A DNA stretch of 64,000 nt, taken from the NCBI GenBank assembly GCA_965655095.1, contig OZ296654.1, positions 70,122,001 through 70,186,000 on the forward strand, read 5' to 3'. The notes beneath the pieces were generated by a model. The model saw only the letters and a program-made list of their open reading frames with translations. It did no database searches and was not told the origin of the DNA. Positions 2,600 to 58,169 of the stretch are shown in pieces. A program made the translations under genes and the position numbers. This DNA is from Haplodiscus bocki. Lineage: Eukaryota. The stretch's first letter is position 1; every line of letters begins with the position of its first letter.

Positions 2600-2602
2600 T
2601 TT

Positions 2603-4019: not shown

Positions 4020-4452
4020 ATTTTCTTTCACTGTGTTTTCTTTAGTTTTCAGTCGTTTGGTTCTAACGGAACTTGAAGAGCCTATAGAACTTTCAGTAGT
4101 TCGTGGCACGGAAAGTTTCCGGTTCAGGCCAATAGAGTGAAGGTAAACGGATACGCAGTCGATCGCTAAATCATATTGATTTGAGTGAACCGTTCGGTCC
4201 GGTGTCACTACAGAAACAGCCGAAGATAGCGTGTTACCGCAATCAAATCATCGAGTGTGAACTCCTGTTTGAGGAGTTGCATCCTAGACATCCTCCAATA
4301 CCCGTCCCTTAGTCTAGACCGGAGCTGAAAGAGCCTCTAGAACTTTGAGTAGTTCGTGGCATGGAGAGTTTCGGAACAGACCAATTCCCTGGGGGTGCGC
4401 GACATTAGAACTTTCAGTAGTTCCTGACGCAAAACCCAATCCCCAACTCGCC

Positions 4453-16129: not shown

Positions 16130-16785
16130 CCTCAAATAGTGATAAGTGTCTTGATCCAGAGATGAGTCGAATGTCCGAAGCACTTTGATGACCCCAGCAT
16201 GGTTTCCAGTCAGCAGAAGATATCTGGGACTCTCTGGCACCAAAGCAGCTACGAAGAAGCAAGAAACGAGGACAATTATTGAAGTTATAATCACATACCA
16301 CTTCCAGCCATCTGGACTGGGAAGGGTAAACATTGCAATAGTAGACGCTAAAATAGTTCCCAGAAAAGCTGCAAAAAATATAATCAGTGTGGCAAACGAT
16401 CTACTTTTTGCATTGACCATTTCAGTTGCATACGTCACGGGAAGATACGCACCTCCTATTCCTACACCTGTGACGAGTCGTAGGATAGCATATGGAGTCA
16501 AGGCGTTGGCAAAACTTGTGGAAAACCCAAAGACTCCAATCCATAATAAAACTATAATCAAGGTAACTTTGCGTCCATATTTATCGGCGATAGTGCCCCA
16601 AATAAGAGAACCGGCCAGTGCGCCAACGTAGAGGGATGATGTGCTCATCGCTTCCTGGAGACCTGAAAGTTTCCACTCGCATAAAAGGACAGGGCCCAGA
16701 AGGATTCCTACTTCGGTTTCCATGACGTCACCGACAGTTACTATTGACAGGACCAGAATGACGACATAGTGGTAACAGGTGAATC
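16130..16785 (-). CDS. Exon of an SVOP/SV2-related MFS transporter (N-terminal half, TM1-6)
   Basis: GFTCYHYVVILVLSIVTVGDVMETEVGILLGPVLLCEW; motif A GTIADKYGRK; LRLVTGVGIGG; TYATEM; GWKW; PESPRYLL. Putative acceptor TTAAG| at 16786 and donor GTTAGA at 16129. Confidence 0.85.
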
Positions 16786-17080
16786 CTTAAACTTTCCAAG
16801 TCTATCTTGCATCTTGCAAAAATTTCTGATTAGTTTCTTTAATGTGTGAACAAAAAAAGTAAACGTCCGTTGAAGGAATCGATTTAAAAATTGTTTCCTT
16901 AAACATTTCTTCCGTTGAAAAATATATCTTTTTCTCGCTTTTTTATCAAAAGTGAAATTGCACACACTCATCAAATGTATGTTTGCGAGGATCATAGGAG
17001 CAAAAAATTGCTTTTCAAAACAATTATGAAGATCCCGGTTTGAATTTAAAATAAATTCAACAATGAACAGCTCTGAATCA

Positions 17081-20739: not shown

Positions 20740-23700
20740 CGTTGATGATCGATGAGATCAAGAATTTTGCCGGTGAATATGTTTGCAAGCATCCATGGAA
20801 GCGAATTTTCGAAGGACTTTTTCTACTCTTCTAGAGAAACGTTCTCCGAACATTATATCCCAGCAATTTGTTGAGAACTAAAGTGGTGCTCAATTGAAAT
20901 TCATTTTTTTCAGCAGTTCCAGCAAACAAACTGTCAATGTGTTCATCGTCCCAGGGGCAAACCTCTAAAAATAGCTCGAAAGAAACAGAAAAGTAATCAT
21001 TATCTTATTCATGAGCAATGATTGGCATTTTGATGAAATTGTCATCCAGATGGAGAAAATCTTCAAAAGGCTTTGTTTGGGAGCTTTTTTGCGCAAGAAA
21101 GAACAATCGGACATGTTCCAACAGTTGAAAAGAGCGCAAGTTCAATGGCTAGAAAAATAGAATACCACAGAATATGCGACCAAACACTTTTACCCAATAT
21201 TGTTTTGATTAGATTTTGTTTTTAACTTACGTTCCATTCTAAACTTTTTTGCCCGCAGTGAGCTTACAGCAGCTCCACAGAATGGGAAAACTCTAAAAAA
21301 ATGGTCCCAAGAAACAGATTGTTAAAATTCAGATTCAAAGCTGAGAAATTAATTGGCCTCCACAAAGTTCTGAGGAGATGTTAATTCAAAATTCAAAATT
21401 TTGGACTCCATCTTTTTTTCTTGCAATAAAAACATCAACAAAATACAGGCCAGTTGATGTGTAAACTAGGGCAGAAAGAATGAAATTCCTGCATAGGGAA
21501 TTTTGGAAGAAAAAATGATAAACGGCTCATTCTACAACTTTCTGTCAGTTTCATGGTGCAATTTTGAATAAAACGGAAGTTTGGGGAGAAGAAACGTAGA
21601 ATAGGAAGTCAATCAAAGCATCCACGGAAGAATATTCCGGTTTTAGGATTCTTGAAGTTTTCAATCGGAAGCTCAATATTCCAAACCCACATAACCCGTT
21701 GTGATCTGGGTTCAAAATTTCTGCGAATTTGTTCAGTCTCCTTACAAAACTCTGCGATCATTTCTCACATGTTTTGACAGTTTTTTTGGGTGTGAAGCGG
21801 TACGTCGAATCGCCTAAAAGTTTCTGGAAAGCTTGGAATTGCCAGCATTACCAAATATATGGTTCGTGAAATGAATGGAGTTTCAGAAGAAGGTTAAAAA
21901 TCCCTTTACAGTTGTCTATTCCGGACGAAATTGAATATACTCATATTACAATTGGAAGAAATATGAGTTTCATTGGTTTCAATTGTAATTTAGACTATCA
22001 ACTTATCGCCGGCTCAAGCAGAAATTACAATGTCAGGCGACAGCCATGTTGTGAAATTGAAAAACTTTGAAGATTTTTAACCTCTCAAAAAGCTCGGAGT
22101 TCCAGGCGTACGTGCAATGGCACTGCACCGCAACATTATACAGTTCAAGACATTCACTGCGTCAACTGTGTTTGCTATCTTTGTAGACGGAAATTCTACA
22201 GTCACCGTCACCCTTTTAAGTTCAGAGTTTTCTTCAGAGCTCGATAGGAGATTAATTTTGAAAACACGAAAAAAAGTAGAAACTGTTCAGTCCTTTCAAA
22301 AAGTGCGTTTACTTTTGAAAAGTCTTCTGCTCTCTGAATGCCTAAAACTGGATGAAAGCGTTCTTATATTACGCTACATTTTTTACTTCTCAACATTCTT
22401 ACAGTTCTTTGATGTTCGAATACATCAGTCAACTGGCTGAGTGGATAACTAGAAGAAGGCAAGTAAAATGGCAAAAATTTCAATTACCAAACGAATTGTA
22501 CAAAAGATATTGTATATTTTATATCATATTCCGAAACTAGCTTGTGGTTTAAATTTTGATGTCGTGGATGAGCTCACTGGAGGTTGATAGAAAGGAGGAA
22601 AGGTAGCTGATTTGATTTTAAAAGGATCAATTTGTACAATATTTGCATTCGGGCTGGAAAATTTTCCGTTAGTGATCGACGAGATCAAGAACTTTTGCGG
22701 TGATAATGTTTGCAGGCATCCGTGGAAACGAACTTTTGAAGGGTTGTTTCCACTCTTCTAGAGAAACGTTGTGCGAACATTAGATTCCAGTCATTTCTTG
22801 AAAACTGAATTGTTGCTCAAAAACTTTCATTTTTTAAGCACTTCCAACAACTAAACTGTCAATGTACTCATCGTCCAAGGAGCAAACCTCTAAAAATAGC
22901 TCGAAAGAACAGAAAAGTAATCAATATCTGATTCATAGGCAATGATTGGCATTTTGATGAAAGTTTCGTCCAGATGGAAAAAAGTTTTGAAAGGCTTTGT
23001 TTGGGAGCTTTTTTTGCGCAAAAAAGAACAATCCGACATGTTCCAACAGTTGAAAAGAGCGCAAGTTCAATGGCTAGAAAAATAGAATACCACAGAATCT
23101 GCGACCAAACAATTTTACCCAATATTGTTTTGATTAGATTTTGTTTTCAACTTACGTTCCATTCAAGTTTTCTTGACCACCTCAAGCTTGTAGCAGCTCC
23201 ACAGAACGGGAAAACTCTAGTAAAGTGGTCCAAAAAAAAACAAAACATATTTTTAAAATTAATATTCAATATCTGAGAAATCAAACACCCTCAACAAAGT
23301 TTTACTGAGATGTTAATTCAAAATTCAAAAATTAGGACTCAATGTTTAACTCTTGCTTGGAGAACATAAGGAAACACAGGCCAGCTGATGTGTAAACACG
23401 GGCAGAATGAATGAAGTTCTGCCTAGGGAATTTTTTGTAGAATAAAATGGATTTCTCAGAGGCAACTTCCTACATATTACTCGAAAGGTATCGAAAACTA
23501 TAACATCTGACTCCTATGCAATGTTATGCAAATCGATGAAATTGTCGTCCAGATGGAAAAAGAATTCGAAAGAAAACAAACAAAAGGTTTTATTTGGGAG
23601 CGTGTTTTGCGCAGGGGAATACATTCCACCGTCTCCAATAGTTTAAAAAAGCAACAGGTCAATCGCTATTTATACAGGAAACCACTGAAACTGCGACCCA

Positions 23701-26700
23701 ATAATTTTAGCCTTTATAATTTTAAATAGTTTCTGTTTCTACTTTACCTTCCATTAAAGGTTCATGGACCACACTTAGCATAGAGCAGTTCCTCAGAGTG
23801 AGTGGGAGATTCTAATAAATTCGCTGAAAAAACATCGAATTTTTTAACGGAGCAAAGTTATGGCCTCCACAAGCTTTTACTGAGATGATAACTCAGACTC
23901 TTCAAAATAGGACTCCATGTTTAACTCTTGCAAAGAAAACGTAAGAAAAAGCACATGCCTATTGAACTGAAAACATGGACACAGTGAATGAAACTCCTGC
24001 CTAGGGAACTTTTTCGTAGGAAAAAAGTTGATGAGCGGCTCATTATATAATTTCTGACAGTTTCAATGGTGCTATTTTGACTAAAACGGAAATTTGTGGA
24101 GAAGAAACGTGGAATAGGAAGTCAATCAAAGCTTCTACAAAAGATTATTCCGGTTTTGCGTTTCTGAAAATTTTCTTTGTGAAGCTCAAATTTCCAAACC
24201 CATATAACTTGTTTTGATCTTGGTTCAAAATTTTCGCGACGTCATTCAGTCTCGTTACGAAACTCCGAGATCATATCACAAACGATTTAACAGTTTTTTT
24301 GGGTGTGAAGCGCTACGTAGGTTTGCTTAAACGTTTCTGTAAAGCTTGGAATTTCCAGCAAAACGAAAGTTTTGGTTCCTCAATTGCAATAATTATCAAA
24401 AGAAGGTTAAAAATTGACTTACAGTTGTCTATTCCGGACAAATTAGAATATACTCATATTACAATTGGAAGAAATATGAGTTTCATTGGTTTCAATTGTA
24501 ATTTAGACTATCAACTTATCGCCGGCTCAAGCAGAAATTACAATGTCAGGCGACAGCCATGTTGTGAAATTGAAAAACTTTGAAGATTTTTAACCTCTCA
24601 AAAAGCTCGGAGTTCCAGGCGTACGTGCAATGGCACTGCACCGCAACATTATACAGTTCAAGACATTCACTGCGTCAACTGTGTTTGCTATCTTTGTAGA
24701 CGGAAATTCTACAGTCACCGTCACCCTTTTAAGTTCAGAGTTTTCTTCAGAGCTCGATAGGAGATTAATTTTGAAAACACGAAAAAAAGTAGAAACTGTT
24801 CAGTCCTTTCAAAAAGTGCGTTTACTTTTGAAAAGTCTTCTGCTCTCTGAATGCCTAAAACTGGATGAAAGCGTTCTTATATTACGCTACATTTTTTACT
24901 TCTCAACATTCTTACAGTTCTTTGATGTTCGAATACATCAGTCAACTGGCTGAGTGGATAACTAGAAGAAGGCAAGTAAAATGGCAAAAATTTCAATTAC
25001 CAAACGAATTGTACAAAAGATATTGTATATTTTATATCATATTCCGAAACTAGCTTGTGGTTTAAATTTTGATGTCGTGGATGAGCTCACTGGAGGTTGA
25101 TAGAAAGGAGGAAAGGTAGCTGATTTGATTTTAAAAGGATCAATTTGTACAATATTTGCATTCGGGCTGGAAAATTTTCCGTTAGTGATCGACGAGATCA
25201 AGAACTTTTGCGGTGATAATGTTTGCAGGCATCCGTGGAAACGAACTTTTGAAGGGTTGTTTCCACTCTTCTAGAGAAACGTTGTGCGAACATTAGATTC
25301 CAGTCATTTCTTGAAAACTGAATTGTTGCTCAAAAACTTTCATTTTTTAAGCACTTCCAACAACTAAACTGTCAATGTACTCATCGTCCAAGGAGCAAAC
25401 CTCTAAAAATAGCTCGAAAGAACAGAAAAGTAATCAATATCTGATTCATAGGCAATGATTGGCATTTTGATGAAAGTTTCGTCCAGATGGAAAAAAGTTT
25501 TGAAAGGCTTTGTTTGGGAGCTTTTTTTGCGCAAAAAAGAACAATCCGACATGTTCCAACAGTTGAAAAGAGCGCAAGTTCAATGGCTAGAAAAATAGAA
25601 TACCACAGAATCTGCGACCAAACAATTTTACCCAATATTGTTTTGATTAGATTTTGTTTTCAACTTACGTTCCATTCAAGTTTTCTTGACCACCTCAAGC
25701 TTGTAGCAGCTCCACAGAACGGGAAAACTCTAGTAAAGTGGTCCAAAAAAAAACAAAACATATTTTTAAAATTAATATTCAATATCTGAGAAATCAAACA
25801 CCCTCAACAAAGTTTTACTGAGATGTTAATTCAAAATTCAAAAATTAGGACTCAATGTTTAACTCTTGCTTGGAGAACATAAGGAAACACAGGCCAGCTG
25901 ATGTGTAAACACGGGCAGAATGAATGAAGTTCTGCCTAGGGAATTTTTTGTAGAATAAAATGGATTTCTCAGAGGCAACTTCCTACATATTACTCGAAAG
26001 GTATCGAAAACTATAACATCTGACTCCTATGCAATGTTATGCAAATCGATGAAATTGTCGTCCAGATGGAAAAAGAATTCGAAAGAAAACAAACAAAAGG
26101 TTTTATTTGGGAGCGTGTTTTGCGCAGGGGAATACATTCCACCGTCTCCAATAGTTTAAAAAAGCAACAGGTCAATCGCTATTTATACAGGAAACCACTG
26201 AAACTGCGACCCAATAATTTTAGCCTTTATAATTTTAAATAGTTTCTGTTTCTACTTTACCTTCCATTAAAGGTTCATGGACCACACTTAGCATAGAGCA
26301 GTTCCTCAGAGTGAGTGGGAGATTCTAATAAATTCGCTGAAAAAACATCGAATTTTTTAACGGAGCAAAGTTATGGCCTCCACAAGCTTTTACTGAGATG
26401 ATAACTCAGACTCTTCAAAATAGGACTCCATGTTTAACTCTTGCAAAGAAAACGTAAGAAAAAGCACATGCCTATTGAACTGAAAACATGGACACAGTGA
26501 ATGAAACTCCTGCCTAGGGAACTTTTTCGTAGGAAAAAAGTTGATGAGCGGCTCATTATATAATTTCTGACAGTTTCAATGGTGCTATTTTGACTAAAAC
26601 GGAAATTTGTGGAGAAGAAACGTGGAATAGGAAGTCAATCAAAGCTTCTACAAAAGATTATTCCGGTTTTGCGTTTCTGAAAATTTTCTTTGTGAAGCTC

Positions 26701-28150
26701 AAATTTCCAAACCCATATAACTTGTTTTGATCTTGGTTCAAAATTTTCGCGACGTCATTCAGTCTCGTTACGAAACTCCGAGATCATATCACAAACGATT
26801 TAACAGTTTTTTTGGGTGTGAAGCGCTACGTAGGTTTGCTTAAACGTTTCTGTAAAGCTTGGAATTTCCAGCAAAACGAAAGTTTTGGTTCCTCAATTGC
26901 AATAATTATCAAAAGAAGGTTAAAAATTGACTTACAGTTGTCTATTCCGGACAAATTAGAATATACTCATATTACAATTGGAAGAAATATGAGTTTCATT
27001 GGTTTCAATTGTAATTTAGACTATCAACTTATCGCCGGCTCAAGCAGAAATTACAATGTCAGGCGACAGCCATGTTGTGAAATTGAAAAACTTTGAAGAT
27101 TTTTAACCTCTCAAAAAGCTCGGAGTTCCAGGCGTACGTGCAATGGCACTGCACCGCAACATTATACAGTTCAAGACATTCACTGCGTCAACTGTGTTTG
27201 CTATCTTTGTAGACGGAAATTCTACAGTCACCGTCACCCTTTTAAGTTCAGAGTTTTCTTCAGAGCTCGATAGGAGATTAATTTTGAAAACACGAAAAAA
27301 AGTAGAAACTGTTCAGTCCTTTCAAAAAGTGCGTTTACTTTTGAAAAGTCTTCTGCTCTCTGAATGCCTAAAACTGGATGAAAGCGTTCTTATATTACGC
27401 TACATTTTTTACTTCTCAACATTCTTACAGTTCTTTGATGTTCGAATACATCAGTCAACTGGCTGAGTGGATAACTAGAAGAAGGCAAGTAAAATGGCAA
27501 AAATTTCAATTACCAAACGAATTGTACAAAAGATATTGTATATTTTATATCATATTCCGAAACTAGCTTGTGGTTTAAATTTTGATGTCGTGGATGAGCT
27601 CACTGGAGGTTGATAGAAAGGAGGAAAGGTAGCTGATTTGATTTTAAAAGGATCAATTTGTACAATATTTGCATTCGGGCTGGAAAATTTTCCGTTAGTG
27701 ATCGACGAGATCAAGAACTTTTGCGGTGATAATGTTTGCAGGCATCCGTGGAAACGAACTTTTGAAGGGTTGTTTCCACTCTTCTAGAGAAACGTTGTGC
27801 GAACATTAGATTCCAGTCATTTCTTGAAAACTGAATTGTTGCTCAAAAACTTTCATTTTTTCAGCAGTTCCAGCAACTGAACTGTCAATGTCTTCATCGT
27901 CTCATGGGCAATTTCCTACAAATTACTCGCAAGATACAGAAGGCTACAATAATCTGACTCATATGCAATGATATCCAATTCGATGAAATTGTCGTCCAAA
28001 TGGAAAAAGAATTCGAAAGAAAACAAACAAAATGTTTTGTTTGGGAGCGTGTTTTGCGCAGGAAAAATCAATCAACCATTGCCAATAGTTTAAAAAAGCA
28101 AACGTTTAATCGCAGAAATACAGAAAACTACCGAGCTAGCGATCAATTAA
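20740..28150. repeat. Wider higher-order array built on an approximately 0.6-kb diverged monomer
   Basis: GATGAAA..GTCCAGATGGA.AAA motif recurs at about 21030, 22955, 23535, 25470, 26050 and 27980; diverged flanking copies at 20740-21930 and 27860-28150. Confidence 0.8.
21933..27861. repeat. Tandem duplication of a 2513-bp unit, about 2.36 apparently identical copies
   Basis: Identical ORFs at 22117, 24630 and 27143, and at 22974 and 25487; offset 2513 throughout. Confidence 0.95.
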
Positions 28151-42099: not shown

Positions 42100-43230
42100 A
42101 AATAATTGCTGTCAGAAGGTGATAATTGCTGATTTGACACTATCCTAAAAAACATTGGTTACTTGCTTTTGCACATTCCTTAACACTTTGTTGACAACGC
42201 TAAACTAGTCTGGAATCCATTGCTAAGGCCTCATTTATAATTTGCACTATGATTGACCTCATGTCAATGTCTCTTCTTCGTGCTGGCGCTAATTGTTCAA
42301 TTTTAGCATTGATTAATGATAAATTGCTTCCAGAACATATTTGACGGCTCAATTTGGCGCTCTAATACTGATATGAATTTATGGCTGTATAACACGAATG
42401 ACGCACCTCGTTAGACAACGTTCAGTGATGAAGCTCAGCTTAGTAGTGAAATAATTACTCCTAGCGCGAAAATGAAAGCTCGGTATAGTAACTTGATTAT
42501 ACTGCAGTGGTTGGATGGCGTTTAATGATGTGGCTGTGCAATGTCACAAGTGCAATGTCAAATAAAACAATGATGGCGCATTATAGTGCACAGTGATGTC
42601 AATGTGGCTCCTTAAAACACATATAACACATACTCACGTTCATGACCCTTTGGAGGGAAATATTAGTACAATGATGCATTCATATCCTGTTGTGATTATT
42701 AAACTGTATATATTGCTGATGTAATAGGTCATATTAAATTCATAAGGGCTTCATACTTATAATATAGGCTACCCGCATAATCATATCACAGAGTTCATAT
42801 TTCTATTATGCGAGGGCATGACATAAGAGATCATTTTTATGTCATATTCGTCTTGGATTAGCAAACGTCCTTACTTTAGTCCATTATTCGGGTTTCGGTT
42901 AGCAATCTCACAAAACTGTCCGTCACAGGCGGCAGCTTGCAACAATTGCAATAGAGTTTCAGTTCGAGAGAGATTAAAACATGAATCTTTGTTGTCAATT
43001 CTTGTCAATTTTTGCTGGTTTTATCATTACAAGCATAAGTTAAAACGGGTTAAGGTAAGTATGCCAGCTCTGCCATGAGCAAAAGGTTCGATAAAGACTG
43101 GTTGAGTATGCTCTGTGCCTGTACCCAGGGATTCATCTCAGTCAAAACGTACAGGGTCATAATTATAATACCAAGTCAACGGGGGTGGGCACATTGGTAA
43201 AATAGAAAGTCCCACGGATGCTCCGTGGTG
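42100..43230 (-). pseudogene. Possible highly decayed Penelope-like reverse transcriptase remnant
   Basis: FTNVP at about 43190, P*PVLT at about 43050 and YVMPSH at about 42825 follow Penelope RT motif order; abuts (TA)n; catalytic YxDD not preserved. Confidence 0.3.
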
Positions 43231-43507
43231 TGGTAACTCTGATCACAGGGGCATGCCCCGGCTCGAATTAAAAAGTCCCTGCTTCCTTTGTGTGCTACCA
43301 GTGTCTTACTTAGAATACCATGTTTCATTCCTGAGTTGTATATTCGAGATTTAGAGAAACAAGATATGCAAAAAATATGGCAAAGGTTTCAACCAAAATA
43401 TTTGTATGCACGGCCAGAATGCCAGAAGACTTTCTTGTACATTTGTTCATGAAACGAATTTGATTCCATTCGTAAAGTGTCTCCAAGCTCAACTGAACTT
43501 TTCTTGA

Positions 43508-44079
43508 TATTATAGCGACCAGCCTTGGGAGCTATGATTATTTCATAAGTTTTTTTCAGACGTAAAATTTTTTTTTAATTTGCAACAAATAAACTAATTT
43601 ATTAGGTTAGTTATTACAGGTTCTAAACGCTTATGAAAAGGTTTACAAAAATTAAATTACAAGTAAAAAAAAATAGAACACCAACATTTGTCTTGTCTTC
43701 GTGATGTAGGGAGGTAGAGAGAGAAGAATAGAAGAAATTCCGGATTATTTTTTATTACGATGAGAAAAGTTTATACAAAAAGATTGTTCAGATTGTTAAT
43801 AGAGCCAAGGGAGAAATGCATGATGGTAAAACAAATCGCTAGATGACGGCTGTTACGAAAATGTGTACTGATATACTTCATCACTCGTATTCTACAACGA
43901 ACAGACACCAAGAAAGAATTATTTACGAATTACTTTTACTACGATAACGAGAGGTTGAGTAATAACGAACTAGAGAGCCTGGAGAAAATGAAGTAAAAAT
44001 TGAGTACACTTTTCAACAACGTCACGTAGTAAAATAAAAATTATCTAGATCACTTATAGTTTTGTGGGTTTTTTTAACG
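43508..44079 (-). repeat. 3' LTR of the Gypsy element
   Basis: Collinear with 55197-55839 (TCTTCGTGATGTAG, TTGTTAATAGAGCC.AGGGAGAAATGC, TATAGTTTTGTGGG); purine tract AAAAAGAAGAAC on the minus strand just inside. Confidence 0.85.
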
Positions 44080-44132
44080 GTTCTTCTTTTTAAAAAATAT
44101 TCGTCCCGCATTTCTATTTATCTTAGATTTTT

Positions 44133-45031
44133 TTAATTCCAGCATGTGGAAGTGTCAACATCGCTAAAAGGGCAGCAGAAACTACACAGGTGAGAATTCT
44201 AATTTCGGACTCCACGAAGGCCACAACAGTCCAAAATTCTTCTGTTTTTCAATGTGGACAAAATGTCACAGATATCCGTTAACGCTTCCGATATATTCAT
44301 GGGGCAAGTTGGGTTCTGATCTGGGTGAGTGAGGGGTCGGAGTCGTAATTATAGTTTACCAATTTCCTTCGGGGTAGCAGTTTCCGGAACCCCAAGAAAC
44401 GTGTAGCAGTCAGCAGCGGCGAGGCGTTCAAAGTTTGTTTCAGCAAAAGATTGAAGTATTGCATAGAAACACTGAATGGCTCGTTCATTTGCTCTGGTCA
44501 CTTGCTTGACTTCTTGTAGTTCTTTTGAGCCAGTTGTGTTTTGGCGGATGTCGCGAGTCAAGACTTCATTATCCTTTAACAGTTGCTCATAATTATTTCA
44601 AAACAAGTTTACAGACTTTCCAAAGCGGGAGAGTTCAACTTCTTTCTCTTTGACTTGTGCTTCTAATTTTTCAATTACATCTGCTTCACAAAGTAGAACA
44701 GCGAGTTCTTTCAATTCATCAGGATCTATATTGCAGACAAAGTGTGAATAATTGGAGGCGAAAATGAAGTTTAAATGTCCATGGTGTCCGGGAGGACAAG
44801 AGGAGCAATAGGTGAGCAAAGGTTACATTCTACGATGGAGTTTCTGTTGACAGCAAGGGTGGTAATTGGTTTCGGAGGAGCCCAAAGCGCCGAAAAACCA
44901 ACAAAAAAAGACCGCCGGCGGCTGTCGAAAGCGGGGTGAACCATGACGCATTTTGTTGAAAGTATGACGTGAGTCAAATGATATGGAGTTGGGTCCAAAT
45001 TTTACACGGTGTCACCACAAGCTACATCCAT
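44133..45031 (-). pseudogene. Accessory ORF after env: coiled coil plus C-terminal DnaJ (J) domain
   Basis: ORFs 44598-44819 and 44349-44561 share a frame. Reading through the TAA at 44349 gives DCYTFLGVPETATPKEIGKL*LRLRPLTHPDQNPTCPMNISEALTDICDILSTLKNRRILDCCG. Confidence 0.8.
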
Positions 45032-45279
45032 AATCTGACCACTGGCGGTGAGAGCTAAGGATCGGGACTGAGACCTGATATAAAAAAAGGTTGAAAAGTT
45101 TCAATAAAATGCACAGAAAGGAAAACAAAGGCTATAAGTTTCTTACGCATAGGCGTAGGCAAAAGCCTCTTGAGTTATCTCAAGGACACGGTGAGAACGT
45201 TTTGCCCTAGAGCCAGGACCTTCGACTAAGCGTTGAGAAAAAAAAATCAGTGTCAAACACTGGTCAGTGAAAAGCCTTC

Positions 45280-47950
45280 ACAAGGTGGAAGTTAGATACG
45301 ACATAAGGAGGGGTATGAAATAGTGATCCTCACGGTACATACTCGTAGAAGAAAGAGCTCTCGGTGAAAACCTGAGGAAAGTAGCATGATTCAACATTAG
45401 TGAATTAACACTGGACGGGAGTAGATCGGAATACATAAAATATTTTTTAAGTAAGACGTAACATTGGACGGGAATAGGTTTACTGTGGTCAAGCATGAGG
45501 TGTTGAGTACGTGTGAGCAACATCGGGGTAGAGGAGGGGTTGTTTTGAGGATGTGTTGCTAGTGGGACAAGTGTCAACTTTGCGGCGTGCGAGTGATTCT
45601 GTGGCAAATTCGGATAACGCTGAAAGTTCGTCTTCGGTTCAATAAAAAAAACGCAGTTGTCGCTTGCGTGTCATCTGCAGCAAGCTCGTTAACGATGTGT
45701 ATAAATTGCGAAAGAGGCGTTGCAGATGAGTGATGAACTACTTCCATTGACGTTTGAACAATATGAAAGTGAAGCTGAAAGAAATCAAAGAAATGGTCAT
45801 GGACAAGAGAGCTAAACACAAAGCGCCCTCAGTCTGCATATATCCTTCGAGTGTTTTCCTCGTGGCAAGCTGAATGGAGGCCTAGTAGTGAGAGATGGGC
45901 TCAGCCACCGCTTTGAGTTTATCAAAATCCTTTGTGTGCACGTCGGGTACCTCCGCTAGTTCCATGCGGACACTGGTCAAGATACAGACTTGCGTATATC
46001 GCTGTGAGAACACATATTGAACTCGGCACTAGGCGGTGGTAGGGACTCAAAGACTTTTTGCAACGATGGAATTAGTTAAACTCTGGCGACAAACGGCTCC
46101 GGACGAGTTTCACAGTAACTCATGTCCGGGTTCAAAACAAGACCTCCATGGTTAAGCGTTATTTTAAATGAGCAACCTGGGCGAATGACACTTGCATGAC
46201 AGTCAATAGAGGATATTCTAGTGCCATGAGAATCGGTATCGTTCATCATTGGAACGTGGCAATTTCGTGGGATGACTTGATAAAGGCCATCTGCAAGGTA
46301 TGAAGCTTGCGGGGCATTAGGTAACAGAACTTATTCAAACGTGATAATTTTGGAAAGCGGGAACATTAAAGTTTTAAAACAGAGACGTTAAACACAACAA
46401 ACTCATATCTGTGGTAGTGCAAAATCCTTTACGGCAAGATTGATTCTGTTGGAGCCAAAACACTGTTGCAACGTGGCAACACCAAAGTCGGCGTGCTGGG
46501 ATTTGTCAGTCGCAGTTGATAAACAGTCATGACGGAACTGATACAAAGAAACAATAAAACCATCCTTATTGGGCTGATAAATTGGAATTGCACGGTTAAT
46601 ATTGACAGTAACAGATTATGAACTCATAGGTTTCCCAAGTACAACAGAGATATCAGAAGCTAGGATGGGAACTTCTAAGACAGTTTGAACTGCGTAGTAC
46701 GTTGTTTCGTAACCAACTTGCATGACTGGTGATAGCTTAGTATCGCGCTGAAAATATTCTTTTGAGAGTTCAGGAACAATCTCGGCTAAACAATTGGGTG
46801 TTGACAAAACAAAAGCAACATAGCTGGACGATATTGAAAATACTGCTGAATAAAGGTTACTTCTGCAAAAAACAAAAGCTGATTGGTAAAATCTAAGATG
46901 AGTGTACACAACATCCAAATACAAAGTTCGATTTTCCACTTTGAAGACGAGATTGCTAAAGTGTTTGGTATGGACTGCACAATGAGCAAAATAGTTCAAA
47001 GAATGAAAAAGTTGATCTATAACTTCGGACGTGGCGGTCAAATGGTTTTTGACTACATCCCCAAATGCGTTGACATTTTTCTGCGTCATTGATGTCTCTG
47101 AACCAAGGAGAACAAATTTTCTGTCGTTGACGGTTTGAACCATTTTCATTGATTCAGCAAAACGTTCTGTTGGGCCATAGGGTTGAAATGTCGTTCTTCA
47201 AATCTGTTCTATCGCTGCACAGTTTGAAGATAGGGAAAGCACTGCATGCTGCGTCCTTTATTGAGTTACCATGAACTAAGATAGCTGCTGCAGATACGGC
47301 CATCAATGCAGGAATAAAGCAACGTTGCCAAGAACGTCCCGTCTGTCTTTTGTCTCCGTTCGGTTTCGTGGACGGCGGTGCGAAAGACTCGGTAACTCGA
47401 AGGAGTTGAAGGTGTTCGTCTGCAATGGCATTTTTTCTTTCAGGAGAAGATTCACGCGATTTTCGACTAACTCAGCTAAACCTGCCAACTTTGCTAACAT
47501 AATATTGGTGTTGACGACGCAATACATGTGTGTAGATTAGAATTGGCCTCTAGTCAGATCCATATTATCTTGGTATCTGTGACCGGTATTGGAAAGTTTT
47601 TGACGCGCCTCTAAGACAATCTGGCGCAACTGGAATGCTCCAGCTGGGTCAAATGCTGGTGGCTGTGGAAATGGTGAAAAGAGTCTAACGTTACTCACAT
47701 TTTGAGATGTGACGGCTTGATAAGCTTAGGTAAATACTGCGCCTCGTTGTATATCCTGGTCTTCTTTCTTGGAGTCCACACTTGTTTGGAAAGAAACCTC
47801 GTAGCTGATCATAGGAAACCAAGAGTTCAGGAAGATATGGGAAGTTAGCCAAGGACACGTTCCGGAGCGTTGGTACTAAACAAAAAGAGGAAAACTAGGA
47901 AACGACAAAGAAGAGTAAGAAACTGGAGAGAAGTTAGACAGGTGAAAATA
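45280..47950 (-). pseudogene. env: Envelope/fusion glycoprotein (class I, errantivirus/baculovirus-F-like), disrupted
   Basis: Hydrophobic N-terminus at about 47900; basic site RRPRNRTETKDRR followed by hydrophobic DVLGNVALF; long helical region 47149-46616; Cys-rich 46600-46000; TM ALCLALLSMTISLISFSFTFILF at about 45755-45825. Confidence 0.75.
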
Positions 47951-48649
47951 GTAGCAAAAAATGCAAACTACTTTTTCTCATCATGATTCGATTTATGGGA
48001 ACTATGTTCCTATTTACTTCTTTTTAGATTTTCTAATTTCGAGTTGCTACGTTAATGCTTTTCTAATTGATGATGCGGTTGTGCATGCGCCAACGGTGTA
48101 GAACGTAACTGACGTTGACACGTGGGCAAGCTACCAAGTTTGGCAGACGTTTGCGAGGTAGTTGAGTGGTCTAACTTTTCTGCGGCCTCAGAAATGAGAC
48201 TCTCAATGGAAAAAGATGAAGATGAGTCTCGTGGTACAATGCTAATCCTTGGGAAACTTGAAATATCAAAAACGTCTTTAATTACTGTTGGAGAAAGTTC
48301 CTACGGTGAAATCTCAAAAAAATCTCGAGGTGGATTAAAAAGGGTGGTTTTACTGGGGACAGAAGAAGCTCGTTTCAGATATGCAGCAGCAGAAGATCCT
48401 TGGCCGGGGCTTCATGGACAAAGACTGCAGGAAATGGGTTTGTAGAAGCAGTTCGAGACCGGGGGTCTACTGGAATGTTTTCAACCAAAATTTGGGAACA
48501 GTTACAATGTTGGTGAGTAGCGGAGTGCGGTTTTTGAAACTATTTACTTGTCGGTTCCTTAGAGATATTTGATGCAGGCCGCGCGAGCTGTGGTCTTTTT
48601 GTGCGTTGAATGAAGGGTTTTAAAGGGTCATAATAGACGATGGACTCCT

Positions 48650-51600
48650 TTTGGATCGCTGTGTTTTTGATTTTTTATATAAAGTCGCTAAGACATTCTA
48701 CAATTGTGTATGGACCTTTACAAGGGGATGAGAGTTTGGGACTCAGTTCTTTGGGGGTGACAGAGTTATGTAACCAAACTTTGTCACCTGGTTTGTATCG
48801 GGGGCCGTGCGTTTTAGAATTATACACAGCACTGCGTCGCATTTGAGAAACTTGAAGATGAAGGTGTGCTGTATCGCGGGCTCTTTGCATGTTGGCACTT
48901 TTTTGCTGAATAAACTGATGCACGTCGGTTTTGTTCCTTTGTTCTTCCGAAGGATACTGGATATCCCCTGGGAGGTTAATTTCTTCGCCCGAAACAAGAA
49001 ACTGAGGTGTGTAACCTGTTGACTCATGGACTGAAGTTCGGAATGCCACCATTACATACGGAAAATGCTGGGCCCAGTTGCTTTGGAAGTCATCGACAGT
49101 TTTGGCCAACATGTTCAGTAAAGTTTTGTTCATTTGTTCGATTACGGCATTTGATTATAGATGGAATGTTGTAGTCCGCGTTTTATCAATCTTAACCGAC
49201 TATATGAGACTTTGGAAGAGTTCAGACACAAAGTTTCGACCTTGTTTGTATGAATGCTCATGGGAACGCCAAAACGACTACTCCAGTGTTGAAGTAGTGC
49301 GGTAGCAGTCAATTCAGCTGTCTGATCTGACAATGGGACTGCTTCATACCGCTTTGTGAAGTGATCACCAAATATTGCTTTGTATGAGTTACCATTTGAA
49401 ACCGGGAGTGGTACAAGGAAATCAATACCAATGTCAGCAAAAAACACCGGGAAACCAACTGACAAGGCTGTGTCTATGTTTCTGCTTGGAGCTGTTACGT
49501 TGTTGACAAACAAGACAACTTGAGACAAACACACTTGAATCTTTCTTGTGTCCTGGCCAATAGAATCTAGTTCGAAGCTTTTCTAAAGCTTTTTTAACTA
49601 CTAGGTGGGCAGCTGGTTCTCAACTGGGAATTGATTCTAAAATATTGGGTCACAATGTTGTTGGAACGACTTGTTGTAAAAGACTTTGGCTTGTGCTGGA
49701 ATCCTCAAAACTTCGCAAAAGTTATCATTTACAACATTGAGGGAGGTAAAGTTGTTCCAGAGAACCGAAATGTCTCTGGACTGGCCTTGTATGACTCAGC
49801 GATGGGGTTGTTTCCCGTTTTTAACCCAAGAAAGAACGGTTGCAATACTCTGATCGTCTTCTTGTGCTTGTTGCATGTAATTCTCTGTTCCTTATTCTTT
49901 TCGAGTCCCGCTATGACTAAAATTCTGCTGTTGCGGCCGTCTATAAACCGTGACTTTCAAGGAAGAGTTGTGGAAAACATCCGTGGTGGTTTTTTTCACT
50001 TTCAATCAATCTAGCTTATCTAGTCCGGTCGACAGTTGTGGTATGCTTATCTTTTTATTTTTGTGTTTCTGCACGGATTGCAAAATGGCTTCCAATGCTA
50101 CACGTAGGGAAAAATACGTTGGTTGGCTACAAAATCTGGACTCCACTATCAAGTCACAAAGGAATCTATTCGGAGAAATTTGTTGTGGGTAAACTTTTCC
50201 TTTCGACGCTTTCGACACAAACTCGGGGTATCCGGTTGGGAAATCTTTACTAACCTGCTTAGCAAAACCTGCTGCTAGCTTAAAAAAAGCTGAAATGCTA
50301 TGCGCTATTGAATCTGTCGAATCAAATAGATTTCCACTCAGTTCTAATACTTCAAATTTCTCAGAAGTTTTTGTTTGGCAGACTGTGTGCACGAGGTTAA
50401 AACTTTGTTGACTTCTCTCATCTTCAACATTTTAGGTATAAGATGCTATTGTTGCTCTTTTGACACCGTGTGCCCTTTTTGCCGAGTGACTGGTGCTTTT
50501 CCTTTGTCCGTGCGGGGACGATAACGCCATTCTGTGTCACTTGTTTCATCGTTGAATTGCGTTGGATGCTTTGCTTCAGCACTACTCGTAGATGCATGAG
50601 CCTGATCCACGGTGCCGTCTTGACTAGGAATCATGGACGTAGAGTCCGCGTGCCCGATACTTTTTGTACTGCGATGGATATTTTCATATTCAAAAGACCC
50701 TATTATTTGTAGCCAACGTGCCGTTAGACCATAGGGTCTTTGAAACTTTGAAGCCACTGCAAAGCTCTGTGATCAGTGACAATTTGGAACGTTCTTCCTA
50801 ACAAGTAATGCTTGAAATGTCTAGCGAATTTCACAATAGCCAAAAAGCTACGTTTCGTGGTGAAATGTCGGCTCTGAGTTTTGCTAAAGGATTTGGATGC
50901 TTAACAAATGACGCGTTCCGAACGATTTTGAAATTGAGTGAGAAGTGCGCCCATTGCATGCTGGCTAGCATCAGTATACAATATGAAAGTTTCGTTCTTG
51001 CTCGGGAAAACCAAAGTTTGGGCGAAGGTGAGCCTCAACGTCAGAACATCAAATGCTTTCTGGGCTTCAGAATTCTAGAGGAAATCTTTTAATTTCTCAG
51101 TCAGTTGATTCAAAGGACGGGCTGGTTTTGAAAAGTCTTGCACACCTCTTCTAAAGTATGAACAGAGACCTAAAAAAAATTTTAATTTCGGTACCCTTCT
51201 TTTGTACCGTGTATTTTTTAACAGCGGAAGTTTTCTCAGGATCGGCTTGGATGCCTACAGGGCCTTGATTTTGAGATTGGCCATTTTGAACCTTTGAAAA
51301 ATTTCACGAAGGTGGTCAAGGTGTTCTTCGATTGTGCGGGAAAGAATGATGCAATCATCAGAATAAAGAACTGTCAATTTCCAAGTTATGCTTACGAGTA
51401 CCTTTCTCATGAGACTTTGAAAGTGTTTGGACTGCCGGTGAGTCCCATTGGCATTCGCAGTTATATAAAAGATTCAAATGGTGTACTGAACGCTGTATAG
51501 TCCTCAGTGGCTTCTTCCATCCAGATTTGATAAACTTTCCAAGACCTGTCAATGATAGAGAAGTAACAACTACCTTCCAAAGTGTCAAAGGTTTCCCCGA

Positions 51601-52730
51601 TGGATCGTATTGGCCAACAGGACATAGTGGTATGCTTGTTAAACTGCTGATAGTCAATGACAAGTCTCAGTTTACCATTTTTTTGGAACTAACATAACAG
51701 GTGCACAGTATTGGCTATGGCACAGCTCAATGAGTTCATGCTCAAGGAATTGGTCCATTTTTTTCCCGAAGGTCTGATTTGAAATGCATTAGTATCAGTC
51801 AGTTCGGAAAATTGATCGGAGTACAACCTGGGTAAACTTGAATTTTATCTTTCACGAGATCGCATTTTCCGATGTCTTTTTCATCTTTAGAGAAAACAAC
51901 CGAAAAATCACGGAACAACTGCGCAAATTTCGCATGGGAACTTCCCATCAGAAGTAGTTTTGCCTGGTTGGAGGTCAGACTTGTTGATTGCGGTGTGTTT
52001 CTGTTTTGGTAGAAAAGTTACACTGTTCTGGGAGAACGTTTCGTCTTGCAGCATAGTGATTGTTCTTCGCGTTAAACCTTTGTAGATCATTCGATCTGCT
52101 CCGGGATTAATGATACGTGCCGGGATAGCATCCTCTTGAAATTTGGAAAACTTTCTGAAAGCTGAGACATTCTGCTTCTCACAGAAAGATTGTGAAGGTT
52201 CGAAAATTCATTGATTTGTCAGTAAGGTATGATCATCATGGCCAATTTTACCTAGAATATTCGCTTCATGACCGGACGTTTTGAGGGATGTTTCTCTGGC
52301 AACAACTCTCATGACTGGGCAGTGTCAGGATTGAAACGGTACTGTTCGATGGAAAAGGTTTGCGGAGGTACCACGGTTCAAACGTAACTTCGTTTCAAAA
52401 AACATGAGATCACACTTGTGTGTCTCACGAATATCGAGACCTAACAAACACTCATCTTCAGAAGCTTCAAGGACAAAAAAATGTGTCGAAAAGTCATTGA
52501 TTCTCTTTTAATTTCAACTGCATGTTCACCTTTTACTTTAATCTCGCTTGGATTGGCGGCTAGGAGTCGTTTAAAACATGGTTCCAGAGATGACTGCACC
52601 TTTGGAGGAAGACGAACGAACACTTTTGGGCTCAGACAAAAAACACTTGCGCCTGTGTCCCAAACGGCGTCTGACGGAATTTTAAAGACCGTAACTCGTA
52701 CAAAAACACTTCTGTCATCCACCACTGAAT
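48650..52730 (-). pseudogene. pol: Gypsy pol (protease, RT, RNase H, macrodomain, integrase with GPY/F module), disrupted
   Basis: Protease AVWDTGAS; RT remnants 52000-51150; RNase H ending TARWLQII...SIGHAD; integrase RFYWPG, IGIDF, IEQMNKTLLNML, HESTGYTP, KGPY. Confidence 0.9.
49940..50350 (-). other. TARG1/OARD1 (Poa1p-like) macrodomain embedded in pol
   Basis: GNLFDSTDSIAHSISA..LAAGFAKQV...QPTYFSLRVALEAI...ISIPQLSTGLDKLD*(W)..DVFHNSSLKVTVY. Confidence 0.85.
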
Positions 52731-52779
52731 TTACGCATTCCGTCTACTGAAGGCTTTTTGATTTGGCTGCGCAGTTGCC

Positions 52780-53720
52780 TCGTTGATAAGCAGGTGCTTT
52801 AAGTTTAACTTCTGGCGTCGGGTGCGGCATTTTTGCTTGAAGATGCCAATTTTGCCACAATTAAAACATGTTTTGCGGTCACGGCTGGGATCCTTGGTTC
52901 GGCCACATTGTTTGCATTTTTCTTCATCGCTACGGTGCGGACTCGAACTTCGGTCTCATTTGTTGTTTTTGGAGGTATCTGAGAAGCTAATTTTAGATTA
53001 AATCTGCTGATTGTTGCTGTTTAGGGCGGTTTTTTGCTCGTTGGGCTGGTTAGGTTCTTCAGAGATAGAAACGTTGTTATTGCGTCTCGATCCTGTTAAG
53101 GGAGACCGATATTGGTTACTATCTCGACTATCCGAGCGATTTTTTTGTTCTACGAGGCACTTCTGTTGGTACATGGTGACCTAGCCAAAGTGTCTTAAAT
53201 TTCTGTGCGGAGACTACGAACTAACTCAGTAAAAGTTTCGAGAGGGGTCTCAGTGCTGATATCGTTAACACCAGAACTTTGCATTTTTAAATCGTCGAAT
53301 TCAAGAAAAGACTGGGTTTCCAATGCTGTTTGCAGTGCAGCGTCAGCATCTGCGGTTTTCGCTTTGCGAACCTCCCTGCGAACAGTGGGGTTCGACAAAC
53401 TGGCAATGAAACTGGTCAGCAGGATTTCATTGCGGACAGCCTCAACAGGATAGCCATTGCGGGATAAATCTCGCAACTACCAGAAAAAAAATGGGGATGG
53501 TTTGTCCTGATTGTTGATGGGTAGCTTTAACTTTAGCCTTATGCATATCTTGATTAGGAGTTTACTGAGTTCAAAAAGCGTCAAGAAATCGATTTATGTT
53601 AACTACAAGTGGGGTATATGGAAGCACAGAAATCAAATCAACGTTTAAATGCTTGTTTGAGGCCAACAAAAGTTGAAAATTGGAACCATCGGTACGACAG
53701 CGGGTTTCAGTAACACAAAC
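52780..53720 (-). pseudogene. gag: Gypsy gag, disrupted
   Basis: QQSGQTI...RDLSRNGYPVEAVRNEILLTSFIASL capsid motif; zinc-knuckle remnants CKQCGR and CFNCGKIG. Confidence 0.75.
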
Positions 53721-55180
53721 AGGGCATGGAGGACATAGATGAATCCACGGAAAAGAAAATGGAACAACATGAGTTCCAACCGTGAAGCAGATAGACTAAG
53801 AATCAAAAAACAAAACAAAATAGAGAACGAAAGCCGTTTAGAGACAACAAAAAAAGAATAAACAAACAAATGAGAAGAATCAGGAGCCGGTGGATGGATT
53901 TTAAGAGAGCCAAAGTAAGAGAAATAGTGTCAGGGGCAATTGCAAGGCGCTTTCGTAGCTCGGGTGAGAAGTGGCTTGAGCCTGTTTTGTTGGATTTTCA
54001 GGATCTTGATGCTTCTGAGACATTTGAGGTGCCAGAAGTAACTGTGGAAGAAGAAGACGTGACAACGGCGACGCTGGTCGAAAGCAATGCAGATAAGCGT
54101 GGGGTTGAGGCAACTGGTTGGCTGTTAGGTTGTCAGGGTTATTATGCGCGTACACTTCCAAGTAAAGGAGTCAAAGATTTCCGAGGAGGTAGAAAGTTAG
54201 AGCGTAGTGGAAAAAAGTGTTATTAGTGTCAGTCAAATAGGACCGAGTCGAAGTGCGCGAAATATATGAATGGTAGTGCTGATTTAAGAGGACACTGTGA
54301 AGAGGTTGGAGTCAAGGAGGGAACGGGCGACCGTAACCAAGAATACAAGGGTATGGAACTCTAGCGCATAGATATTGACAAAAATAACAAGGGAAAGCAA
54401 TGACAAAGGGGCCGGAGCTAATGTTAACAGTGTGGTAGACGGACATACAAACTAGTTAACAAGTTTATGTGTTTTTTTGCAGCGAGGCGAAGAGAAATGT
54501 TAAAGAACACGGCAGCACGCGACGTGACGAACGTACGGCAAGGAAAGAACGTAGCGGAAATGACGGCGACAAAAGAACGTTGCAGAACGACGAGGACAAA
54601 ATCGGGGCGTCGTGGAAAACTAAAATCTTAGAGGTGGGGGTAGAAGGTACTGCCGCTAATCCTACACCAATCAGTCTCAGTGTTCCACACTGGAGGGACA
54701 CCTAACTTAGTCTAGTTGGTCACATATGCGGAAGAAACCAACTGGATTGAAACTCTGGATCAATTAAAACTCATCAAACGTGTTGATGGACAAGCAATAG
54801 TATTCTCAGTGAAATTTCAAGCCATGACCAACTGATTGAATAAGTGCCTTGGCATGGGATTCGTACTCCAAGAAGAAAAAAATGAAAGAAACGAACGCAA
54901 GGATTGGCGCGGGTTAGCAAAAAACGGAAAACGGATGGAAGCGCTAAAAGAAAAGCAAAAGGTAGTTCGATAAGCGAACTGTTAAAATTAAGTCACTTCA
55001 AATGACAAACAACGGAAAAAAGGAACCAAAATGTGAAAATTGTAAAAATTGAAAAACGTCAGCGCTGATGCAGTTTAAGAAAAGAACGCAAAAACCAAAA
55101 CAAAGCAAGGGAGGAAAATGTGTTAGAGACCAAACGAAAAGTTTAGAGGATGCTTGTGGGTGACATTTAAAAGTCTAGAA

Positions 55181-55194
55181 AGTTCCTGTCACCA
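55181..55194 (-). promoter_or_regulatory. Primer-binding site of the Gypsy element
   Basis: TGGTGACAGGAACT immediately after the 5' LTR; tRNA not assigned. Confidence 0.6.
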
Positions 55195-55196
55195 TT

Positions 55197-55839
55197 TTAT
55201 ATAGCAATATTGCTTTGGGTGCTATAAGTTTTGTATGTTTTTCCTCAGAAACAAAAATCTTTTTGCACTTTGCAATAAATAAAAATAAAATATTAGGTTA
55301 GTTTTTTACAGGGTTAAAACGTTTACGAATAAATTGAAATAATTATAAACAAACAGTAAAACTTATAGAACACTAACATTTTTCTTTTCTTCGTGATGTA
55401 GAGAGATAGAAAGAGACGAAGAGAAGAATTTCCAGATTATTTTTCTTTACGATGAGAAAAGTTTACTTTTGCTATATAGATGAGCTGTTGTTTACTGCAC
55501 AAAAAGATTGTTGGGATTGTTAATAGAGCCGAGGGAGAAATGCGTGATGGGAAAACAAATCGCTAGTTGGCGGCTGTTACGAAAATGTCTACTTCACTAA
55601 TCGTAGCTGTTAACGAGTAATGACTGATGATATACTTCATGACTCGTATTCTACAACAAACAGATACGAAGAATGAATTACTTGCGAATTACTTTGACTT
55701 TAATAACGAGAGGTTGAGTAATAAGGGCCTAGAGATCCTGGAGAAATTGAAGTAAAAATTGAGAACAATTTTTACAAAGGTCACGTACTAAAAGCAAAAA
55801 ATATTTAAATCAGTTATAGTTTTGTGGGTCTTTATAATA
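55197..55839 (-). repeat. 5' LTR of the Gypsy element
   Basis: Diverged repeat of 43508-44079 with two extra insertions; termini decayed. Confidence 0.85.
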
Positions 55840-57623: not shown

Positions 57624-58169
57624 CTAATTGAAATAAACATGAACTAAAAATGTGTGCACACATTGAGTCGACTGTTTGCAGTGACTTCGAAAAGACTTCG
57701 AAAAATTATGCTTTTCTGTATCATTTTTGTTCTGAGAGATATTAATAGTCTAATTGAATATGAGAAAAAATCTAATAGATTACATTTTGAAAACATACGT
57801 TGCTCCAGGTCAATGGTTTTATTAATTATTTCATACAAGTTATTTTTGGATGGCTTAATTGAAGGTTTTCGTTAATTAGTTTCGCAATTTAATATCTCAA
57901 TTTAAGTTACATTAAATTTGGCAAATGCTCTGAATTAGGTCCTAAGAATGCTAAAATTTTGCTTGTTTGTCTTCAATACACAACTTCTTGCTGTCGCAAA
58001 TATTTTATGACAGCAAGAGATTTAGTATTGACGACAGAAAGGCAAAAATTTACACAAAAGTTTTGCGACAAACTCAAAACTCGACTCTTAAATTTTGACT
58101 TCACTCTTATACTTCACATTTTATCATCCCTTTTGGTCAATTTTCCCTCAATTTTACTGATGTATTCTG

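Follow-up and report, generated by a model that had tools for sequence, protein, structure and literature searches.

A 12.3-kb env-bearing Ty3/gypsy element of Haplodiscus bocki with a macrodomain in Pol and a J-domain gene

A 64,000-nucleotide stretch of the Haplodiscus bocki genome (GenBank assembly GCA_965655095.1, contig OZ296654.1, positions 70,122,001 to 70,186,000 of the forward strand; hereafter the window) contains a unit that a sequence-only reading had described as an old retrovirus-like element, bounded by long terminal repeats (LTRs) and carrying gag, a pol gene with a macrodomain, env, and a gene for a J-domain protein. The locus thus raises the question of whether such a gene set is a real, shared architecture or a chance arrangement in one decayed copy. 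We found that the unit is a 12,326-bp Ty3/gypsy element on the minus strand (43511-55836), which entered as a single insertion and has the identical 4 bases at both ends, and that it is an old, broken member of a large and recently active element family. The layout of the element is conserved across families, it has multiplied recently, and each of its proteins is under selection.

The window copy and its young relatives

Comparison of the window with itself revealed direct repeats that bound the region, with 11.7 kb between them. The LTR pair is 80.4% identical over 565 aligned sites (Kimura two-parameter distance 0.228) and, together with the ATAT duplication shared around 12,326 bp, bears out the proposed LTR-bounded unit of 12.3 kb; its exact ends, first placed at 43508 and 55839, needed correction, as they take in part of the target-site duplication (Table 1). 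A six-frame Pfam search of the window detected RVT_1, RT_RNaseH (E 9e-24), Integrase_H2C2, rve, and DnaJ (E 4e-5, improving to 6e-7 when the J-domain stretch was searched alone). The macrodomain, env, and gag of this decayed copy had no Pfam match in six frames; these three and the J-gene were located by tblastn with a young relative as the query. Gag, pol with its macrodomain, env, and the J-protein gene therefore do lie in one Ty3/gypsy unit, as proposed, but the number of genes had been set too low: small open reading frames (ORFs) before gag were overlooked.

The window copy is old and dead, as its LTR divergence and many lesions had already suggested, and every large frame is broken. By tblastn, gag lies in 3 pieces with about 7 stops, pol in 11 pieces with 27, env in 2 with 14, and the J-gene in 2 with 5, stop counts that may be too high because the tblastn pieces overlap. 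A contig from sequencing run X1 spans 42500-43857, the junction of the 3' LTR and its flank, and shows no differences; this run is possibly the assembly's own source and hence not independent. Assignment to Ty3/gypsy rests on gypsy-type Pfam models and on the LTRs, primer-binding site, purine tract, and target-site duplication; Atlas neighbours are also gypsy-type at 0.78-0.81, which serve as leads only. LTR ends other than TG..CA are found in most families.

The sequence-only reading had advised that the organisation be sought in younger copies, and it was found in many of them, with open frames and 98-100% identical LTRs. The J-domain stretch of the window has at least 151 matches in the genome, and J-gene queries from more distant families gave 123, 127, and 132 matches, which partly overlap. 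From the J-gene match lists we fetched 39 other copies, favouring open frames and spreading the choice across families (labelled A to H). In 27 of the 39, reverse transcriptase (RT), RNase H, the macrodomain, integrase, env (at least 75% covered), and the J-gene follow one another in order, so that the modules do co-occur outside the window. Four copies have env and the J-gene, with RT absent from the fetched stretch, and two are tandem arrays in which the J-gene is present and pol and env are absent. Wherever RT is present, the macrodomain lies between RNase H and integrase (33/33 copies). Among 61 env matches are 14 open frames, 99-100% identical, and each of these 14 family-B frames of 797 aa is preceded by a macrodomain match and followed by a J-gene match, both at the expected distances (tables compared by eye).

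Family B is the nearest young family: over the element it matches the window at about 81%, and the alignment passes the module borders unbroken. Its frames measure 367 (gag), 1646-1660 (pol), 797 (env), and 321 (ORF4, the J-gene) codons. Pfam orders the young copies as gag followed by pol with protease (PR), RT, RNase H, and integrase (IN), and the window agrees. LTR pairs are 99.8-100% identical in four family-B copies, 99.0% in one family-C copy, and 98.3-99.9% in four distant copies of families E-H, and 4-bp duplications flank all five young copies inspected. The pol proteins of families B and C are 55% identical, and the order of the layout is kept across families with pol 55-62% identical; in families E-H it is kept in 11/11 copies even though ORF4 is merely 20-35% identical. 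One duplication encloses all modules of the window copy, and this, with the order kept across families, likewise went against separate nested insertions. In a quick RT-RNase H tree built from this genome's copies and unnamed proteins, in which decayed rows have long branches, all families form one group and the window falls beside B.

Selection was estimated by the Nei-Gojobori method on few pairs. Between families, the proportion of synonymous differences (pS) is 0.71-0.87, which is saturated, and that of nonsynonymous differences (pN) is 0.10 for RT, 0.29 for env, 0.38 for the macrodomain, and 0.31-0.54 for the J-gene. Within families, omega is 0.13-0.14 for env, 0.19 for pol, and 0.37 and 0.43 for the J-gene.

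The macrodomain, Env, the J-protein, and the leader proteins

The macrodomain of the young relative finds human TARG1/OARD1 as its best match in the Protein Data Bank (PDB), over the whole domain (E 4e-26), and exceeds the Pfam Macro cut-off. In the literature, which here and below is represented by excerpts of each source cited by PMC number, the catalytic dyad of human TARG1 is Lys84/Asp125 (PMC8120803), the latter residue being given as Glu125 in PMC7050489, and the enzyme strips ADP-ribose from DNA and RNA ends (PMC11088682). Both dyad positions are invariant in 10/10 aligned copies. A wider count found the lysine in 26/28 and the aspartate in 23/28 copies, and among older copies these numbers are 3/6 and 5/6; the window macrodomain keeps one of the two residues. 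Judged by these alignments, the domain has a minimal macro fold homologous to TARG1 with a Lys/Asp dyad. A macro profile search returned unnamed ENA proteins as the best 120 of 229 matches, and an Atlas query with the RNase H-macro-integrase region returned generic clusters alone, all below 0.9. The host TARG1 gene was not identified among the Pfam Macro matches of the genome. Two of these, L110 and L111, are strong (E 1e-38 and 5e-22) and are probably host macrodomain genes.

The proposed ADP-ribose eraser is thus a TARG1-like domain inside pol, supported by the PDB match and the dyad, but it is not special to env-bearing elements, as an env-less gypsy lineage also has one. This second lineage (L122-L141, e.g., L123 1415-6991) comprises 20 of the 20 stretches chosen for long frames from 93 Pfam Macro matches; its RT is about 32% identical to that of the present families and lies far from them in the RT-RNase H tree, and its TARG1-like macrodomain, which retains the dyad lysine in 20/20, is placed between protease and RT. 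A macro tree puts the lineage on a long branch and, as the tree has no host TARG1 row, is compatible with one capture or two. Two separate placements of a macrodomain in one genome suggest that ADP-ribosylation is a barrier to retroelements. In the second lineage, moreover, an unexplained stretch of about 320 residues separates RNase H from the integrase zinc finger.

Env follows pol with a furin site, a fusion peptide, and a transmembrane (TM) anchor, as read from the alignment and as in F-type errantiviruses. An alignment of nine rows shows the RxxR site, the hydrophobic peptide, a long helical region, conserved cysteines, and the TM segment; the signal peptide was judged by eye and is hard to see in distant families. 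The env profile matches the PDB entries 9w4c and 9w4d, named 'fusion protein' (E 2e-4 and 5e-4), and the Atlas neighbours are Baculo_F and Fusion_gly (paramyxovirus-F) clusters at 0.95-0.96. The fusion glycoprotein of the earlier reading is accordingly present as an env module whose F-type nature is likely, not proven.

ORF4 encodes a coiled coil of about 90 residues and a C-terminal J-domain. The His-Pro-Asp (HPD) motif is intact in 34/39 J-domains, those of the window and of the metagenome contig L107 (see below) included, and the domain exceeds the Pfam cut-off in families A, B, C, E, and G and in L107. A structural model of the domain has solved J-domains as its best matches, with target TM-scores up to 0.83-0.85, and points to a J-domain fold with HPD between helices II and III (class C). 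The J-domain, a putative Hsp70 co-chaperone domain, was thus correctly recognised in the window. The N-terminal beta domain of ORF4 had no PDB match, and a guess that it is SH3/KOW-like found no support (pLDDT 42-55). The predicted acceptor before the J-gene is not kept in one old copy (L074); where checked, the predicted acceptors are in the same phase, and family D has no start codon right after the acceptor. Between L067 and L055, identity is 99-100% as far as the ORF4 acceptor and drops to 37-73% after it (from about position 8500). By this comparison, families have exchanged the J-gene and the 3' LTR, and the predicted splice acceptor marks the breakpoint.

The two arrays differ in their units. 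Array L069 (G000:C10, about 69.55-69.59 Mb) has about 14 units of 2.73 kb, each with LTR, leader, and J-gene, which are 98% alike and mostly contain open J-gene frames of 267 codons. Array L071 (G000:C2, about 29.73 Mb) consists of J-gene units of about 2.08 kb without pol or env. Both possibly represent amplified or co-opted J-genes. An origin of L069 from a reverse-transcribed spliced message was considered and rejected: the parts from the leader and from ORF4 are 317 unmatched bases apart, and the predicted acceptor is downstream of the join.

Families B and C share three leader ORFs of 148/143 aa (a), 76/74 aa (b), and 99/97 aa (c), which are 38-44% identical, ORF c being 44%. Homologues of ORF a are present in 5/6 families, and a short hydrophobic ORF is present in 6/6, with the [P/L]PxY motif in 5/6; the start, stop, and motifs of ORFs a and b persist across these 5-6 families, in which the two ORFs change order. 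ORF c is confined to the A/B and C/D groups and was not found in families E-H. The leader ORFs have pS of 0.66-0.67 and pN of 0.39-0.44. None has a Pfam match, and ORF a has no PDB match. In one family-C copy (L051 5500-8600, minus strand), a block of leader ORFs and partial gag is duplicated. At the end of gag, the slippery heptamer TTTAAAC occurs in 3/3 families checked and is a predicted frameshift site.

The primer-binding site of the window copy has counterparts in families E, G, and H, where 18 nt are complementary to the same host tRNA-like gene. This gene lies in tandem arrays, with 746 matches of its 3' pattern genome-wide, and scores 36.9 bits with the Rfam tRNA model; read from its sequence, it appears to be Leu-CAA with an intron, although ARAGORN made no tRNA call on it. 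One copy is L142 85-186, and a 424-bp tandem array lies at G000:C1, about 161.07-161.15 Mb.

Relatives also occur in other sequence collections. The metagenome contig L107 carries an env 47% identical to that of the present elements, followed by an ORF4 homologue (hhalign 99.5%; DnaJ E 1e-9); it is probably from another host, because it had no match in this genome at E 1e-12. A second contig, L108, is similar to family H. Identities of 38-67% to the nearest fetched copy were obtained for several unnamed Pol and ORF4 proteins, and one protein, P0113, does not exceed 42% identity at any place scored in the genome; these relatives may come from other hosts or from unsampled families. The protein searches returned unnamed relatives and no named protein, and scans of viral contigs found no relatives.

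Table 1. Features of the element in the window (positions of the window; listed in the 5' to 3' direction of the element).
Feature	Positions	Strand	Remarks
Target-site duplication, 4 bp (ATAT), element 5' side	55837..55840		matches ATAT at the other end
5' LTR, 637 bp	55200..55836	-	non-TG..CA ends (TATAA.. / ..GCTATA); young families share the end type
Primer-binding site	55184..55194	-	5 nt inside 5' LTR; 11 nt complementary to 3' end of host tRNA-like gene
Small ORF a	54120..54446 (matched part)	-	Cys/His-containing; 148 aa in young family; 75% identical to family B
Small ORF b, 74-89 aa	53887..54023 (matched part)	-	hydrophobic segment after [P/L]PxY motif; frameshifted
Small ORF c, 97-99 aa	53610..53780 (matched part)	-	in gag frame but stop-terminated
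gag	52803..53603	-	Retrotrans_gag and CCHC knuckle; broken, shortened at 5'; tblastn from young relative
pol	47971..52836	-	broken; PR 52731-52403, RT 51858-51261, RNase H 51104-50671, macrodomain, IN 49679-48603, C-terminal tail
Macrodomain, TARG1/OARD1-like	49943..50362	-	in frame between RNase H and integrase; tblastn, 71% identical to young relative
Predicted splice acceptor preceding env	47876..47877	-	pyrimidine tract and TTTAG; same place in window and families B and C
env, F-type fusion glycoprotein-like	45492..47869	-	broken; tblastn, 60-65% identical to young relative
Predicted splice acceptor preceding J-gene	45075..45076	-	TCAG after pyrimidine tract in window and families A-H
ORF4 (J-gene)	44136..45031	-	broken; small beta domain, Pro-rich linker, coiled coil, J-domain (44423-44136, HPD intact), Cys cluster
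Purine-rich tract preceding 3' LTR	44078..44091	-	sequence reading
3' LTR, about 567 bp	43511..44077	-	two internal deletions compared with 5' LTR; approximate, as inner end is decayed
Target-site duplication, 4 bp (ATAT), element 3' side	43507..43510		matches ATAT at the other end

Elsewhere in the window, a BEL/Pao LTR element (DUF1759, Peptidase_A17, DUF5641; 45-51% GC) occupies about 1400-11150 on the plus strand; BEL/Pao elements are not known outside animals. Its integrase end and an LTR-like segment are repeated exactly 8763 bp apart, which suggests a recent copy that is tandem or recombined. At 16088-16786 on the minus strand, a frame of 232 codons belongs to a major-facilitator transporter (Sugar_tr E 1e-24) and is probably a host exon. 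About three repeats of a 2513-bp unit with identical short frames lie at about 20700-28100, and a 49-bp inverted repeat with a 3-nt loop and 78% complementarity lies at 57952-58052.

A working model and its alternatives

We propose a working model of how these proteins may act together, to which we assign a probability of about 0.6. Full-length RNA would be translated into Gag and, through a -1 frameshift at the conserved TTTAAAC, into Gag-Pol, and tRNA-Leu would prime reverse transcription. Riding with Pol in the particle, the macrodomain would remove ADP-ribose added by host PARPs to cDNA ends, RNA, or element proteins, and this removal would help to complete reverse transcription and integration. 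Spliced RNAs would give rise to Env and the J-protein. With its coiled coil and N-terminal domain, the latter would place host Hsp70 on a client, most likely the element's own particle, during assembly or uncoating, and otherwise a host restriction complex. PPxY motifs are known to function in budding, a step that the small membrane protein, with its PPxY-like motif, could assist. Finally, Env would admit particles to neighbouring cells, probably from soma to germline, as in fly errantiviruses.

Several observations weigh against this model. Env has no Pfam fusion-protein match and no match in a single-sequence PDB search, its recognition score in the Atlas comparison is under the tool threshold, and its AlphaFold model is unusable (pLDDT 41). 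The J-domain of family H is below the Pfam cut-off, and the structural matches of the J-domain model are all weaker than E 0.001. No splice donor shared by families B and C was found, and family E lacks the PxY motif and ORF a. Six of the 39 copies keep RT, the macrodomain, and the J-gene with env deleted partly or wholly, and one such copy has 99.8% identical LTRs; since the J-gene is kept after env loss, the J-protein need not serve entry. In the second macro-bearing lineage, neither env nor a J-gene was found within about 3 kb after pol in any of the 20 stretches, and the macrodomain therefore implies no extracellular phase. Sampling was anchored on the J-gene or env, and clade members without both fall outside the counts.

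The main alternative, which we regard as possible though doubtful, is that the additional genes are counter-silencing or targeting tools of an intracellular retrotransposon, with Env contributing little to spread. The macrodomain would then mainly bind ADP-ribosylated chromatin and steer integration, like chromodomains in chromoviruses, and the J-protein would be nuclear or act as a decoy on host silencing complexes. The macrodomain indeed adjoins integrase and recurs in the env-less lineage, and the J-gene outlives env deletion and has been amplified without pol or env in the two arrays. Exchange of the J-gene with the 3' LTR is also expected of a fast-changing host-interaction module. Host silencing offers parallels, as the J-protein SILENZIO works in plant transposon silencing (PMC8616336) and ADP-ribosylation by SIRT6 silences L1 (PMC4695847). 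However, the catalytic dyad is retained, which would be unneeded for binding alone; env is open in young copies and more constrained than the J-gene; and a membrane ORF with a PxY motif suits particle release.

It is improbable that the J-gene and leader ORFs are passengers, that is, captured host fragments or overlapping regulatory sequence of no benefit to the element. The leader ORFs do lack known relatives, have lower pS (0.66), and lie in part in overlapping frames, ORF c is restricted to two groups of families, and the within-family omega of the J-gene, about 0.4, is the highest measured. Against this, the J-gene is open with its HPD motif across proteins 20-35% identical and on an unrelated contig, and ORFs a and b retain start, stop, and motifs despite their changed order. 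The probability that the window unit arose by chance as a chimera of nested insertions, or in assembly as an artefact, is negligible: heavy decay and a first genome DNA search that gave one relative, without env, might have suggested it, but the young copies align unbroken at the module borders, a single target-site duplication encloses everything, and the order is kept in diverged families.

A bolder extension of the working model, which is tentative and in our judgement rather unlikely to hold in full, is that these elements form an undescribed genus-level lineage of enveloped Metaviridae in which the design of complex retroviruses evolved independently. Such a lineage would combine up to seven genes and subgenomic splicing with its own co-chaperone for Hsp70, an enzyme that counters PARPs from within the particle, and a dedicated PPxY protein for budding that is distinct from Gag; its cell-to-cell spread would be continuing in this host and at least one other. 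If true, it would point to PARP-based and chaperone-linked defences against retroelements in the invertebrate germline.

Relation to known elements

Env-bearing Ty3/gypsy elements across invertebrates have been published as 'ancient errantiviruses' (Chary and Hayashi, eLife 2026; PMC13524379). The present families share with them a gypsy pol with integrase last, the gag-pol-env order, and multicopy young elements; the errantiviral F-type env likewise has a furin site, fusion peptide, and TM segment, and tRNA-Leu is among the primers. In contrast, that work annotates three ORFs, against as many as seven in the present clade. Its main text and seven supplements mention neither a macro nor a DnaJ domain, 'macro' occurring solely in species names among the rows shown. 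The bridge region may differ as well: in errantiviruses it consists of RNase H plus a 'mini' domain (ancient group) or a pseudo-RNase H (insect group), and here a macrodomain follows RNase H, although the unnamed 'pseudo' and 'Other' bridge types of PMC13524379 could hide a macrodomain. About 90 residues before the integrase zinc finger of the present elements are a possible counterpart of the 'mini' domain.

LTR elements of bdelloid rotifers (Rodriguez et al., 2017; PMC5408684) likewise capture enzymes and small TM ORFs, and one lineage has a paramyxovirus-like F env. Their captures differ, being GDSL, DEDDy, dUTPase, and coiled-coil or TM ORFs, and the words 'macro', 'DnaJ', and 'chaperone' occur 0 times in the text. 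Teleost epsilon-like endogenous retroviruses bear env and macro-domain ORFs (Basta et al., 2009, cited in PMC4977317); those are true retroviruses with occasional additional ORFs, whereas here the domain is fixed inside Pol clade-wide. The env of Lokiretroviruses resembles Mononegavirales fusion proteins (PMC9040795), and Lokiretroviruses, Odin retrotransposons, and Retroviridae have a dual RNase H (a tether and a new RNase H); in the present elements, Pfam detects a single RNase H region, and it is the macrodomain that fills the interval ahead of integrase. Orchid gypsy elements carry an AlkB-like domain (PMC9289625).

Compared with human TARG1/OARD1, the match is full-length and the dyad aligns, but the domain is embedded in a polyprotein and the dyad of the window copy is incomplete. 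Macro domains are annotated in some other animal retrotransposons. Polyomavirus T antigens are a DNA-virus example of an HPD J-domain, located N-terminally. The J-domain of ORF4 is C-terminal, behind a beta domain and a coiled coil. The likeness is a functional analogy only; ORF4 could likewise recruit host Hsp70. A literature search, with most subscription journals and Repbase reports outside it, found no J-domain gene in an LTR element, nor this combination. The clade-wide J-gene, the leader ORFs, and the combination as a whole appear to be undescribed; precedents exist for env and, probably, for the macrodomain.

A J-domain gene, a TARG1-like domain, and leader proteins kept through deep divergence point to host processes that limit retroelements. 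A review raises the possibility that PARP marks on nucleic acids restrict retrotransposons (PMC7050489), which could be tested here with single small domains, and the J-gene offers a mobile-element handle on the role of Hsp70 in capsid assembly or silencing. Accessory genes mark the complex retroviruses of vertebrates, and env-bearing gypsy elements of invertebrates have been described with three ORFs. The element analysed here has a real and stable complex architecture within env-bearing Ty3/gypsy, and its complexity is like that of vertebrate retroviruses with accessory genes.

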